This document shows positions 10,778-38,907 of a stretch of DNA of 38,907 bases, piece after piece; position 1 is the first letter of the stretch, and every line of letters begins with the position of its first letter. Origin of the DNA: Terriglobia bacterium (GTDB lineage Bacteria; Acidobacteriota; Terriglobia; 20CM-2-55-15); contig DASTBJ010000769.1 of assembly GCA_035712125.1 (NCBI GenBank), positions 1 to 38,907 of the forward strand, written 5' to 3'. A model generated the notes under the pieces. It made no database searches. It saw nothing but the letters and a program-made list of their open reading frames with translations, and was not told where the DNA came from. A program made the translations under genes and the position numbers.

Positions 10778-11467
10778 TCACTTTAGTAAATCCGGTCTGT
10801 TTCGTGCTGTTTTTTCTTGGGCCGCCTGCTCGCGCCATTTTCTGACCGCCTCGTGATCCCCCGAAATCAGGATTTCCGGCACCGGCCATCCGCGAAACTC
10901 CGCCGGCCGCGTGTAATGCGGGTGTTCAACCGTTGGTTCCAGCGCCGCCGGATCGGAGAAGGAATCTCTCAAGACCGATCCTTCCTTCCCGACAACACCG
11001 GGAACGTAACGGGCCACCGCATCGACGATGATCACCGCGCCAATCTCACCACCCGACAGCACGAAATCTCCTACAGAGAGTTCCGCAGTCGCCAGGTGCT
11101 CTATAACCCTTTCGTCGATCCCTTCATACCGGCCGCAAATCAGGATCACCTGGCTTGCCTTCGACAGCCTCAGCGCCTCACTCTGGTTGAAACGCCGCCC
11201 GGAAGCGCTGAGCACGACGACTTCGGCATCGGTGCTGGTGCGAGTCGACTCCACCGCCTCAAAGAGCGGTTCGGGTTTGAGCACCATGCCCTCACCGCCG
11301 CCGAAAGGGCGATCATCGACGGTCCGATGCCTGTCGGACGTAAAACTTCTCAGATCGTGAATCCGTGTCTCGAGAAGTCCTTTCTCTCGGCCCCGTCGAA
11401 CGACTCCGAAATCGAATGGTCCACGAAAGAATTCCGGAAAAATCGTGATCACATCAAAGACGATCAC
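10778..11467 (-). CDS. trmD: tRNA (guanine37-N1)-methyltransferase
   Basis: 229 aa. [22 protein letters not shown] and YTRP motifs. Confidence 0.95.
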
Positions 11468-11991
11468 TTGTTCAGGTCCGCCAGTCCCTCAGGCAGTACC
11501 ACTTCGATCCGTCGCTGTCCGAGGTCCACTTTCCGAAGGTACGCCTGAGCAAAAGGGATCAGAATCTCCCCCTCCGCACTGGCGACTTCCAAAATGTGCG
11601 TTCCACCGCTGTCGAGAACATCTGTCACGACGCCCAGCAGATGCCCATCGGTTTCCAGAACCTCGCACCCTTTGAGCTGGAACGTGTAGTAGCGACCGTC
11701 TTCCACCGGTGGAAGTTGCCGCTCCAAAACTCCCAGTTCGGCACCGACCAGTCTTTCAGCATCCGAAATGGAATCGATGCCCTCTAATTTCAGGATCAGG
11801 CGACCGTGTTGTCTCCGGTAGAACTCGATCCGGGCGTCTTCTTGGACGCCCGCCCGAAGAATCGTCACGGGTCGGCCCGGTGCGAACACGCGATCGTCGT
11901 CGAGGATTGCCTCAACACGCAGCGCGCCGTCAAGACCCTGCGGTTTTGTGATGCGCGCTATCCGAATGAAAGCCGCTTCGCCAGTATTTAT
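11464..11991 (-). CDS. rimM: 16S rRNA processing protein RimM (5' end uncertain, probable non-canonical start)
   Basis: The ORF track starts at GTG 11889. The conserved RimM N-terminal motif IARITKPQGLDGALRVE is encoded in frame upstream (about 11961-11911). That frame is open from 12036 and has no ATG, GTG or TTG before 11889. ATA at 11991 sits 10 nt after GGAG. Confidence 0.75.
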   Translation of the reverse strand: MNTGEAAFIRIARITKPQGLDGALRVEAILDDDRVFAPGRPVTILRAGVQEDARIEFYRRQHGRLILKLEGIDSISDAERLVGAELGVLERQLPPVEDGRYYTFQLKGCEVLETDGHLLGVVTDVLDSGGTHILEVASAEGEILIPFAQAYLRKVDLGQRRIEVVLPEGLADLNK

Positions 11992-13979: not shown

Positions 13980-14756
13980 CTACTTTCGTTGAATCCTTAA
14001 GATACTTCGAGCCTTGCCGGTTTCACCATCCACATCGATCACGACCGCGTTAAGTCGGACATCCTGGGACGCCGGCTCGAAGCGTTCCGGCATCTGCGTC
14101 AGAAAACGTTTGATCGCGGCTTCCTTCATCACCCCAATGACGGAATGAAACGGACCGGTCATTCCCGCATCCGTCTGGTATGCCGTTCCCCCGGGCAGGA
14201 TCGTTTCGTCAGCCGTGGGAATATGGGTGTGACTGCCGATGACTGCAGAGACCCGTCCATCCAGATACCACCCCAACGCGACTTTTTCCGAGGTCGCGTC
14301 GGCGTGGATGTCCACGAAGATGACTTTAATTCCCTTCGGCAATGCAGCCAGCTCGGCGTCCGCAACGCGGAACGGATCGTCGATCGGCGGCATGAAAACG
14401 CGGCCCTGGAGATTCAATACTGCAGCCGGTTCGCCCGTTCGCGTCTTAATCATGACAATGCCATGGCCGGGATTCCCCGGAGGATAGTTTGCGGGTCTCA
14501 ACAATCGCGATTGTTTATCGAGATAGGGAAGGATCTCCCTCTTGTTCCAGATGTGGTTGCCCGATGTAAGTACATCCACTCCCCAGTCGAAAAAATCGTC
14601 GGCAAGCTGAGGGGTAACGCCATTACCGGGTGCCGCATTCTCACAGTTGAGGATCGTGAGGTCGATGGAGTACTCCTCCTGCAGCTCCTTCAGGTGACTT
14701 CTGACGATAGTCCGCCCAGCGCCGGCGACCGTGTCGCCGATATATAGGATTTTCAA
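13980..14756 (-). CDS. YmdB-like metallophosphoesterase (2',3'-cyclic-nucleotide phosphodiesterase family)
   Basis: 258 aa. (M)KILYIGDTVAGAGR, NCENAAPGNG and GSHTHIPTADE motifs. TTG start. Confidence 0.85.
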   Translation of the reverse strand: MKILYIGDTVAGAGRTIVRSHLKELQEEYSIDLTILNCENAAPGNGVTPQLADDFFDWGVDVLTSGNHIWNKREILPYLDKQSRLLRPANYPPGNPGHGIVMIKTRTGEPAAVLNLQGRVFMPPIDDPFRVADAELAALPKGIKVIFVDIHADATSEKVALGWYLDGRVSAVIGSHTHIPTADETILPGGTAYQTDAGMTGPFHSVIGVMKEAAIKRFLTQMPERFEPASQDVRLNAVVIDVDGETGKARSILRIQRK

Positions 14757-14769
14757 AAAGATCAGACTT

Positions 14770-14991
14770 TCTAAGGCGGCGCCTGAAGCGCCGCCGGAAT
14801 GTTTTGCCCCGCTCAGCCGTGTGGCCCACCTATTTGAACCTGCAAAACAGGTGGGCGCCCAGAGAACGCTTTAGGGGATCTTATTCCCTCCATGGAGGGC
14901 CAGACCCACACACCACGCTCGTAAAAGGGCTCCCTATCAAATAAGCATTGGTTCAAATTTTAATTGGAACCAACACCAACCTCGCAGGGTT
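14770..14991 (-). ncRNA. Unclassified, highly structured ~215-nt RNA (discrete sRNA, or long 5' leader of the ymdB-ffh-rpsP... operon)
   Basis: No ORF. A strong promoter lies upstream. Helices on the minus strand: a long imperfect hairpin at 14932-14989 with an 11-bp core (GGUGUUGGUUC/GAACCAAUGCU) and about 6-7 G.U pairs overall. Those G.U pairs would be A.C mismatches on the plus strand. Also GGGUCU/AGAUCC enclosing CCCUCCAUGGAGGG (14886-14899), GCCCACCU/AGGUGGGC (14824-14856), and the terminal GC hairpin (14775-14795). Confidence 0.45.
14775..14795 (-). terminator. GC-rich hairpin 19 nt upstream of the ymdB-like start (terminator/attenuator candidate)
   Basis: Minus strand GGCGGCGC-UUCAG-GCGCCGCC, a perfect 8-bp stem. 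It is followed by UUAGAAAGUCUGAUCUUUUU, so the U-tract is poor. Confidence 0.4.
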
Positions 14992-14996
14992 AACAG

Positions 14997-15025
14997 ATTC
15001 TATGGGAGTGGCGGGCGGCGGTCAA
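14997..15025 (-). promoter_or_regulatory. Sigma70-type promoter driving the structured RNA / ymdB-ffh operon
   Basis: Minus strand TTGACC (15025-15020), a 17-nt spacer, then TAGAAT (15002-14997). Predicted start near 14990. Confidence 0.55.
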
Positions 15026-15056
15026 CGGGACAATCTATCCTAAGCAGGTTGTATGT

Positions 15057-15296
15057 CTAGGATCGTGGTTTGAACCCGATCTTCAGGCGTACGGCTTCAG
15101 GAATTTCAGCCAATATTTCTGATTGTGCCCTCAGTATTGCCTTGATGTCTTCGAGGCTTCGCTCGACTCGGGCTATTCGCGCTTCCAATTCTCCGAATTT
15201 CTTTTGACTTTCTCCGAGCTGAGCAACAAAAGTCGCCTGATTTTGAATCAGCAACGCCATTGCCTGGGCGAGGGGATCGTTTCGGTGCGTACGCAT
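15057..15296 (-). CDS. Small coiled-coil protein, unknown function
   Basis: Within the 106-aa ORF I prefer the internal ATG at 15296, giving MRTHRNDPLAQAMALLIQNQATFVAQLGESQKKFGELEARIARVERSLEDIKAILRAQSEILAEIPEAVRLKIGFKPRS. It has heptad-like character but I recognise no family. Confidence 0.4.
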   Translation of the reverse strand: MRTHRNDPLAQAMALLIQNQATFVAQLGESQKKFGELEARIARVERSLEDIKAILRAQSEILAEIPEAVRLKIGFKPRS

Positions 15297-15465
15297 TGGT
15301 CGTGATCTCCGTGATTTGCCGGGAGACCGCATAGGGTGGTCCGAGTATACCAGCGGAAAAATGACTGGTAGCAGCATACAGGCGAGAGCATGATCTTTTT
15401 ACACCCGTTCAATTCCGGATCCGGACCTGCGATTCTTACGATAACCAATAAACCAGGAGTACGAA

Positions 15466-37010: not shown

Positions 37011-37512
37011 GTGCGCCAGGTAAAGCTTGGTCCATCTCACAAGCTGAAAGGAGCTTGTCCTTGAAATGATCCGTTCATCAAGATAGCCGCGCAAGCGTGT
37101 GGAATTGGAGCAATCCGCAACACGAAGCCTTGCAAGGCGAAATCATGAGCCGCAGCGAAAGCGAACCCAGTTCGGCCTCGTTAGAAATAAATGAGAGAGT
37201 GGCCAGTCTTCCAAATCGGATGAAGCCTGACATCGGTGTTGAAGAAGCGGATATCGGCAGACACCGAACTCTCCGGGGTGTTAGGGGGCAGCGCGTGATG
37301 AAAGAAGGACCAGGAACCTGGGAGACCCGCGGTTTTTTTTGCGGGAGTCGGACAGCCCATAGTAGCGATGAAACGGGTAACGACCGCGGAGCGAAGGGGC
37401 TGAATGTGAGCGAGCAACTGTAAGAGGAGGAAAGAGCCGCTTGGATGAAAATCCCACTACGGGACAACCGGAATGGCAACTGAGGGCGCCGGAGATCGGG
37501 CCGGAGGTGAGC

Positions 37513-38835
37513 ATGCCGGAGAAACTCTTTCAACTGAGACAGAAGCTGAACGAGAAAGCGAAGCGAGAGCCAAAGTTTCGGTTCTATGTCTTGTATGACC
37601 GGATCTTTCGGCGTGACGTACTGGAGACGGCCTGGAAACGGGTGAAGGCCAACAAAGGAGCGCCCGGGGTGGACGGCGTGACGATGGCGATGATCGAGAA
37701 CAGCGAAGCCGGAGTTGTGGGCTTTCTGGCGGAGATCGAGCAGTCGTTGCGGCAGAAAACCTACCAGCCACAGCCTGTACGTCGGGTATGGATTGAGAAA
37801 GCCAATGGGAAGCTGCGGCCACTGGGAATCCCGACGATACGGGATCGTGTGATCCAGATGGCAGCGTTCCTGATCCTGGAACCGATATTCGAGGCGGATT
37901 TTCTAGACTGTAGCTATGGGTTCCGCAGCGACCGATCGGCCCATGATGCCCTGAAGGAAATTCGAACGCATCTGCGAGCGGGCTATCAGGCCGTCTACGA
38001 TGCGGATCTGAAGGGGTACTTTGATTCGATTCCGCATCAACAACTGATGGCCTGTGTGGCGATGCGGGTTGCCGACCGGTCGGTATTGAAGCTGATCCGG
38101 ATGTGGCTGGAAACGGCAGTGGTAGAGGAACAGCCGGATGGACAACCGCCGAAGGTGAGCCGGACTACCACCGGGACACCGCAAGGTGGGGTGATCTCGC
38201 CATTGCTGTCGAATATCTACCTGCACTGGTTCGATAAGGTGTTTCACCGCATCGACGGACCGGCGCGGTGGGCCAACGCAAAGCTGGTGCGCTACGCCGA
38301 TGACTTTGTGGTGCTGGCACGCTATCAGTCCAGGCAACTGGGAGAGTTTATCGAATCGAAGCTGGAGCAGTGGATGGGGCTGAAGCTCAACCGGGAGAAG
38401 ACACGGGTCGTGCATCTCCGGCACGCTGGAGCGAGTCTGGATTTCCTAGGCTATACGTTCCGCTATGACCGGAGTCGGCCAGGTCAGCCTGCGTATTTGA
38501 ATGTGTTCCCTTCGAAGAAAGCGTTGCTGAAGCAGCGGTCCGTTGTACGAGCTCTTACCCACAGTCGGTACGGGTTCAAACCGACTCCGGTCTTGCTTGC
38601 GGACCTCAATCGCAGCCTTCATGGATGGGCGGCATATTTCAGACTGGGCTATCCCGGCAAAGCCTACCGGAATCTCAACTACTATGTGCAGCAACGTTTG
38701 CGGATTCATCTCAGTCGCCGCAGCCAGCGTCCGTATCGTGCGCCCGAAGGCCGCAGCCTTTATGCGCATCTTCGTGATCTGGGTCTGCGGTCCTTGACAC
38801 CGTCGCGTGATCGCTCTGCTCGTTTGTTCACATGA
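37513..38835 (+). CDS. Group II intron reverse transcriptase/maturase (no endonuclease domain)
   Basis: RT blocks including [35 protein letters not shown] and RYADDFVVL (YADD). Maturase X region LDFLGYTF...LHGWAAYFR. The C-terminus is short with no HNH motif. I prefer ATG 37513 (GGAGG 5 nt upstream) to TTG 37441. Confidence 0.9.
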
Positions 38836-38868
38836 GAGCCGGATGCGGGAAATCTGCACGTCCGGTTC
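38836..38868 (+). other. Group II intron domain V (catalytic hairpin)
   Basis: GAGCCGGAUGCGGGAAAUCUGCACGUCCGGUUC. The lower stem GAGCCGGA/UCCGGUUC carries the AGC triad, a 2-nt AC bulge is present, and the apical loop is GAAA-like. Confidence 0.85.
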
Positions 38869-38871
38869 GAC

Positions 38872-38903
38872 GAGGGGCCCGCGACTTGCTCGCGGGCCTA
38901 CTC
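38872..38903 (+). other. Group II intron domain VI with bulged branch-point A
   Basis: GAGG-GGCCCGCGA-CUUGC-UCGCGGGCC-U-A-CUC. A perfect 9-bp stem with an unpaired A at 38900. Confidence 0.75.
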
Positions 38904-38907
38904 TACA

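Follow-up and report, generated by a model that had tools for sequence, protein, structure and literature searches.

A 6S (SsrS) RNA gene upstream of ymdB in a soil acidobacterium of the class Terriglobia

We analyzed a stretch of 38,907 nucleotides (hereafter, the window) and found that the structured element on its minus strand, directly upstream of a ymdB-like gene, is almost certainly ssrS, the gene that encodes 6S RNA, in a soil acidobacterium of the class Terriglobia. The RNA is a real, expressed and conserved 6S gene that the standard model already recognises, and it is neither a riboswitch nor a new RNA class. A sequence-only reading of the window had offered two options for this element, a discrete sRNA of 6S-like size or a riboswitch/attenuator-type leader; the first was correct, and the RNA is 6S itself. 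6S RNA is one of the most familiar regulatory RNAs of bacteria, and Rfam detects this copy at the curated threshold; its discovery value is small. The follow-up nevertheless clears away a false lead toward a novel riboswitch or sRNA, and provides a covariation-supported alignment of acidobacterial 6S RNAs, together with evidence that the RNA is expressed in soil. The features of the locus are summarized in Table 1.

Table 1. Features of the 6S RNA locus in the window, and 6S-ymdB loci of Alphaproteobacteria
Feature	Position	Strand	Sequence or basis
6S (SsrS) RNA gene	14802..14993	-	RF00013; lineage model R1; covariation in 33 homologues; metatranscriptome contigs
Sigma-70/sigma-A type promoter of the 6S gene	14997..15025	-	10/12 consensus positions
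-35 element TTGACC	15025-15020	-	part of the 6S promoter; followed by a 17-nt spacer
-10 element TAGAAT	15002-14997	-	part of the 6S promoter
Closing stem	5' strand 14989-14965 + 3' strand 14828-14807	-	CCCUGC/GCGGGG, GGUUG/CGGCU and others
Bubble-proximal helix	AUUUGAACC (14958-14950) + GGUUCAAAU (14840-14832)	-	Rfam alignment; covariation helix 5; constrained fold
Central bubble, 5' strand AAUGCUUAUUUGAUA	14935..14949	-	unpaired in the consensus
Central bubble, 3' strand ACCUGUUUUGCA	14841..14852	-	ACCUG can pair with CAGGU (14843-14839)
Terminal (apical) stem	14934-14895 + 14890-14853	-	covariation helices 6-11; constrained fold
Terminal-stem helices	14853..14934	-	GGG/CCC, GCCC/GGGC, GAGCGU/GCGUUC, GGGUCU/AGAUCC, CCCUC/GAGGG
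Apical loop CAUG	14894-14891	-	terminal stem of 6S
6S/ymdB junction element	14767..14795	-	8-bp GC hairpin 14795-14775, then CUUAGAAAG 14775-14767; sequence and hairpin scan
ymdB-like metallophosphoesterase gene, TTG start	13980..14756	-	Pfam PF13277 (YmdB), E 7.1e-105
Alphaproteobacterial 6S-ymdB loci (L047, L052, L054, L056-L060, L062-L066, L068, L069, L071, L072, L075, L078-L080)	6S ~1740-2960, ymdB 3001	same strand	

Identity and fold of the RNA

The gap between the stop codon of the upstream ORF (15057) and the TTG start of ymdB (14756) is 300 bp long and contains only short, unsupported ORFs, which agrees with the ORF-free gap described from sequence. When the whole window was scanned against Rfam at gathering thresholds, two matches were obtained, one of which was RF00013 (6S/SsrS RNA). 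This match scored 65.4 bits against a gathering score of 46.4 and covered the model from end to end (positions 1-187 of 187; E = 6.8e-11 when calculated over the whole window, 1.1e-12 over the region). A second scan, of positions 14600-15200 with permissive filters and E values up to 1, reported RF00013 as the sole family and matched no cis-regulatory RNA family. The sequence-only reading had proposed an Rfam search, in which a clean hit to a known family would leave a real RNA but not a novel one; the RF00013 match is clean, and the RNA is thus real but not novel.

The Rfam span of 192 nt (14993-14802) lies within the ~160-200 nt expected of a 6S RNA, and the distance from the predicted start at 14990 to the contig ends at 14808 described below is 183 nt. 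The length of ~215 nt given earlier adds the downstream hairpin to a 6S RNA of ~183-192 nt. With a lineage covariance model (R1), built from seven Rfam-positive acidobacterial loci plus the window, the window 6S scored 128.7 bits. The elements that flank the central bubble, UGAnCC...GGG on the 5' side and CCCACCU...GGUUCAA on the 3' side, are present in the window; its UGAACC, GGGAGCCC, CCCACCUG and GGUUCAA align to the 6S consensus with high posterior probability, and their columns are invariant or nearly so in the relatives.

We computed the folding energy of both strands and compared it with that of shuffled sequences. The minus strand folded at -80 kcal/mol (z = -3.99), a value reached by none of 200 shuffles, whereas the fold of the plus strand was not much better than chance (z = -1.36). 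This difference supports the argument, made previously from the G.U pairs, that the fold is specific to the minus strand.

A test of covariation gave strong support for the rod-shaped 6S fold, which consists of a closing stem, a large central bubble and a terminal stem. In an alignment of 33 sequences (A2), which was fitted to the model structure so that pairing is somewhat inflated, the rod was 91.6% paired, and 41 of its 58 pairs showed changes on both sides. In 500 shuffles the observed values were never attained, and pairing fell to 42-52% when the partners were slid 1-3 columns out of register. An independent alignment and fold of eight sequences (MAFFT/RNAalifold) recovered the same rod, with compensatory changes in 23 of 58 pairs. 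Helices 1-4 of the closing stem were 82.7-95.4% paired across the 33 homologues, with double changes in every pair. The GGGUCU/AGAUCC helix enclosing CCCUC-CAUG-GAGGG, which had been seen by eye, is real and forms the apical part of the 6S terminal stem.

Other helices proposed from the single sequence fared differently. A ~23-bp imperfect hairpin at 14932-14989 can be drawn in the window, but it is not conserved (49.3% paired in the 33 homologues against 49.1% in shuffled controls), and it competes with the conserved long-range closing stem. The GCCCACCU/AGGUGGGC hairpin was 62.5% paired, no better than slid controls, and is likewise not conserved. Both hairpins are specific to one sequence and compete with the conserved fold, which explains why the minimum-energy fold of the single sequence departs from the canonical rod; when the bubble was held open in a constrained fold, the canonical structure had an energy of -71.9 kcal/mol, compared with -80 kcal/mol for the single-sequence minimum. 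As for the closing helix, the suggested GCCCU/GGGGC differs from the conserved one, which pairs CCCUGC (14989-14984) with GCGGGG (14812-14807).

The competing ACCUG/CAGGU pairing, on the other hand, proved to be conserved as a pairing potential. The equivalent hairpin was 90.3% paired in the 33 sequences, compared with 31.6-69.9% when slid, and a pair that is C-G in relatives is A-U in the window and in its closest relative, L001, which is a covarying change. Because this hairpin takes up the GGUUCA strand and so excludes the bubble-proximal helix, it fits the way in which 6S is known to be released. As judged from the alignment, it represents a potential for a pRNA-induced rearrangement.

Promoter, transcripts and the junction with ymdB

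The promoter that had been proposed on the minus strand upstream of the element was confirmed (Table 1). The predicted start, A14991/A14990, lies 7 nt past the -10 box and 2-3 nt inside the Rfam match, that is, at the 5' end of 6S. In L001, TTGACC-17-TACAAT occurs at the equivalent position and distance, with a diverged spacer. An extended -10 motif (TGnTAnnnT) was found at the equivalent place in 28 of 32 relatives, compared with 1.4% of background 50-nt windows, and ends about 9-10 nt upstream of their conserved 5' end, GAGCGUU. The L001 promoter and the extended -10 motif of the relatives indicate, at the level of sequence, that the dedicated promoter is a conserved part of the 6S gene. Transcription of the 6S RNA, on the minus strand, probably starts at ~14990 from a near-consensus housekeeping promoter that belongs to the gene itself.

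The promoter scan detected two promoter-like sites in the region, compared with 0.6 expected from shuffles. The second is a weaker site, TAGACA-16-TAGATT (9/12), at 15032-15059 on the minus strand, ~35 nt upstream of the main 6S promoter; it overlaps the stop codon of the upstream ORF, and one metatranscriptome contig (X26) reaches 15032. In E. coli, ssrS has a two-promoter arrangement. The weaker site recalls this arrangement but may be a chance match. The upstream ORF itself (106 aa; 15057-15377, minus strand) gave only weak coiled-coil-type Pfam matches, and no homologue of it was found in 80 related loci. We considered whether it encodes ZapA, whose gene precedes ssrS in E. coli, and rejected this assignment because no ZapA match appeared even at E values up to 10. 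This ORF may encode a lineage-specific small protein, or may be no real gene.

The RNA is present in public soil metatranscriptomes, whose runs contain up to 94% of the sampled words of the 6S sequence. Contigs of seven soil RNA runs from several studies were mapped to the 1.2-2 kb around the locus; these Logan contigs, which are strandless and a poor measure of abundance or depth, cover only 14714-15032, and those of a soil DNA run cover the whole stretch. Two contigs from different studies, one of them with Illumina adapter on both sides, end exactly at 14808, a position opposite C14988 at the base of the closing stem. The mature RNA therefore probably extends from ~14990 to ~14808 (~183 nt), or roughly 183-192 nt if the Rfam span is included. 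On the 5' side, most RNA contigs stop at 14943-14974 and not at 14990, and two 'metatranscriptomic WGS' contigs, X25 and X26, reach the promoter region (15000 and 15032, respectively). Their extension may reflect residual DNA, or transcription from the weaker promoter-like site at 15059-15032.

In four runs, contigs of a strain that differs slightly (G at 14804) extend through the GC hairpin to 14714-14727 inside ymdB, so at least some transcripts continue into ymdB. The perfect 8-bp GC hairpin described previously is real (14775-14795) and lies 19 nt before the ymdB start. We examined it as an intrinsic terminator of the minus strand and rejected this role: its tail on that strand, UUAGAAAGU, has no U tract, the contigs read through it, and the terminator scan calls it on the plus strand only, where a T run follows.

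The hairpin is present in only 5 of 33 homologous loci. Hairpin and CUUAGAAAG occur together also in L001 (2237-2245) and in L007, L015 and L048 (2972-2980 in each), which together with the window represent two separate acidobacterial lineages; the stems and loops differ among these loci and the CUUAGAAAG sequence is identical. The 80 loci contain one further match to this 9-mer. At the junction of 6S and ymdB, the hairpin and CUUAGAAAG together may serve in RNA processing or stabilisation.

Linkage of 6S RNA with ymdB across phyla

With the YmdB protein as query, 80 loci were fetched from GTDB genomes. The closest were metagenome-assembled genomes of Terriglobia/Bryobacterales (74% and 54-61% identity); Alphaproteobacteria, Gemmatimonadota and Paenibacillus came next. 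Rfam placed 6S directly upstream of ymdB in seven acidobacterial loci, and the lineage model derived from them detected full-length matches on the ymdB strand in 32 loci besides the window (85-199 bits). Of the 41 acidobacterial loci with enough upstream sequence, 32 thus carry 6S upstream of ymdB in the same orientation. Its end lies 12-122 nt from the ymdB start; most relatives have a spacer of no more than 12-30 nt, which contains no hairpin. In the nine remaining acidobacterial loci and L039, nothing convincing was found with filters off and E values up to 1 (best score, 12.9 bits).

Among the Alphaproteobacteria, 21 of 25 loci carry 6S upstream of ymdB on the same strand, usually ~600-900 nt away with ygfA between. 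The identity of the intervening gene as ygfA (5-formyltetrahydrofolate cyclo-ligase), seen in Bosea, was confirmed in L057. In L063 and L064, 6S directly adjoins ymdB, as in Acidobacteriota. What is conserved across phyla is thus the unit 6S-(ygfA)-ymdB; all other neighbouring genes vary among the loci. ymdB thus appears to belong to the conserved ssrS-ygfA neighbourhood: the conserved partner of 6S is ymdB in Acidobacteriota, and in Alphaproteobacteria ymdB stands just behind the classical ssrS-ygfA pair. We found no paper linking 6S RNA with ymdB in the literature searched, outside which lie the surveys of Barrick (2005) and Wehner (2014). This linkage and the junction motif are minor leads beyond routine annotation.

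The scan of the window detected no promoter-like site between 6S and ymdB. Given this result and the spacer of 12-30 nt in most relatives, 6S and ymdB most likely form one transcription unit, by analogy with E. coli ssrS-ygfA. In the window, the genes downstream of 6S encode YmdB, Ffh, S16, a KhpA-type KH protein, RimM and TrmD, and the unit probably runs on into ffh-rpsP-khpA-rimM-trmD in this genome. It is plausible that the 6S promoter also feeds this downstream operon, since metatranscriptome contigs read into ymdB; a 6S promoter that probably heads an SRP/ribosome-maturation operon would here tie 6S synthesis to genes of the translation machinery.

The link with the ffh-rpsP-rimM-trmD operon, which the sequence-only reading had emphasized, is not general. 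A tblastn search detected none of ffh, rpsP and trmD within 3 kb of ymdB in any of the 80 related loci (the positive control, ymdB, was detected in 80/80), so a conserved 6S-ymdB-ffh-rpsP arrangement was rejected and the association with the SRP/ribosome operon is lineage-specific. The genes downstream of ymdB vary, with PrmA in L033 (Acidobacteriaceae bacterium KBS 96) and a gene on the opposite strand in L023, for example. The closest relative, L001, ends 119 nt past ymdB, and downstream synteny is therefore not assessable there.

These observations bear on the other option of the sequence-only reading, a riboswitch or attenuator leader. Such a cis-acting leader would sense a ligand or protein and control read-through into ymdB-ffh-rpsP-rimM-trmD by means of the GC hairpin. 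The RNA does lie directly upstream of the operon on the same strand, contains competing alternative helices and is followed by a GC hairpin 19 nt from the ymdB start, and some RNA contigs read through while others end upstream. However, the RNA matches 6S at full length and no cis-regulatory family at E values up to 1; the hairpin lacks a U tract on the minus strand, is read through by contigs and is absent from most relatives, which have a 12-30 nt spacer and hence no conserved expression platform. Moreover, the same RNA precedes ygfA in Alphaproteobacteria, and in every relative examined the ffh and ribosomal genes are unlinked to it. We accordingly consider such a leader very improbable. 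Still less probable is loss of function, with the element being a pseudogene derived from 6S or a region structured by chance: nothing specific favors it beyond an apical stem that, in the window and L001, differs from that of the Bryobacterales majority and some model pairs that are mismatched in the window row, whereas the score is well above the gathering threshold, the promoter is intact, the changes relative to the relatives are compensatory (e.g. C-G to A-U) and the RNA is expressed in several metatranscriptomes.

YmdB is a metallophosphoesterase of the 2',3'-cyclic-nucleotide phosphodiesterase type. In B. subtilis, ymdB is a neighbour of the RNase Y gene and influences RNA-dependent regulation. 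It is conceivable, although on balance unlikely, that 6S and ymdB are not accidental neighbours but parts of one conserved functional module. In such a module, YmdB could act in 6S maturation or turnover or in the same growth-transition response, and the hairpin-CUUAGAAAG element could be a processing signal at the junction.

Comparison with known 6S systems and a predicted mechanism

The element resembles the 6S/SsrS RNAs of E. coli (ssrS) and B. subtilis (6S-1) in its full-length model match, its length of ~185-190 nt, its covarying closing stem, bubble and terminal stem, and its conserved UGAnCC/GGnUCA bubble-proximal helix. As in these RNAs, the CCC.ACCU 3'-bubble strand can form a hairpin with the released GGUUCA strand, and the gene has its own sigma-70-type promoter and forms the 5' part of a protein-coding transcription unit. 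It differs in its downstream gene, which is ymdB and not ygfA, and in the GC hairpin and CUUAGAAAG found at the junction in some lineages.

In E. coli, the 5' UTR of ygfA contains ssrS, and the two are co-transcribed (PMC4064990, PMC2848244). The window shares with this arrangement an mRNA that begins with 6S RNA, a downstream gene for which no promoter of its own is evident, read-through into the ORF, and a 3' end that appears to be processed in the absence of a strong terminator. The alphaproteobacterial order 6S-ygfA-ymdB links the E. coli ssrS-ygfA arrangement with the acidobacterial 6S-ymdB arrangement. Unlike in E. coli, no ygfA lies between 6S and ymdB in the acidobacterial loci or in L063 and L064, and in the window the unit is fused to ffh-rpsP-khpA-rimM-trmD. 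Ms1, a structured 6S-like RNA found only in Actinobacteria, binds the core of RNA polymerase (PMC9130861). The window element is likewise structured and 6S-like; there is no reason to invoke Ms1, because the element matches the 6S model itself.

As a member of this family, the 6S rod would mimic an open promoter and bind the sigma-A/sigma-70 RNA polymerase holoenzyme, sequestering polymerase when nutrients are scarce. Upon a nutrient upshift, the polymerase would be expected to use the 5' bubble-proximal strand (UUUGAACCAAU) as the template for a short product RNA (pRNA), whose synthesis would unzip the UUUGAACC/GGUUCAAA helix. In E. coli, the pRNA starts opposite U44 within CUGAGCCGAU. By homology to this sequence, the pRNA of the window is predicted to start opposite U14947 and to read 5'-AUUGGUUCAAAU; its predicted 5' sequence is AUUGGUUCAAA, and that of the Bryobacterales type is 5'-AUCGGAUCAA or GUUGGAUCAA. 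The freed 3' strand would then form the conserved ACCUG/CAGGU hairpin, and 6S RNA would be released, in line with the reported mechanism, in which the 3' strand becomes available for a hairpin once pRNA is made on the 5' strand, and 6S is released (PMC3299989). The 6S gene would constitute the 5' part of a transcription unit reaching ymdB, analogous to E. coli ssrS-ygfA, and the mature 3' end near 14808 would be produced by processing or trimming upstream of the GC hairpin.

Two further observations concern other parts of the window. Counted from the first canonical start codon, the RimM ORF (11464-11889, minus strand) has only 141 aa, and its match to the Pfam RimM N-terminal domain begins no earlier than profile position 34 of 84; judging from this partial match, the N-terminus of RimM seems to lie upstream of any ATG, GTG or TTG. 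At the end of the window, a group II intron (37441-38906, plus strand) contains a 464-aa ORF with reverse-transcriptase and maturase domains (PF00078, PF08388), after which a match to RF00029 (domain V/VI region, 51.7 bits) is located at 38834-38906.
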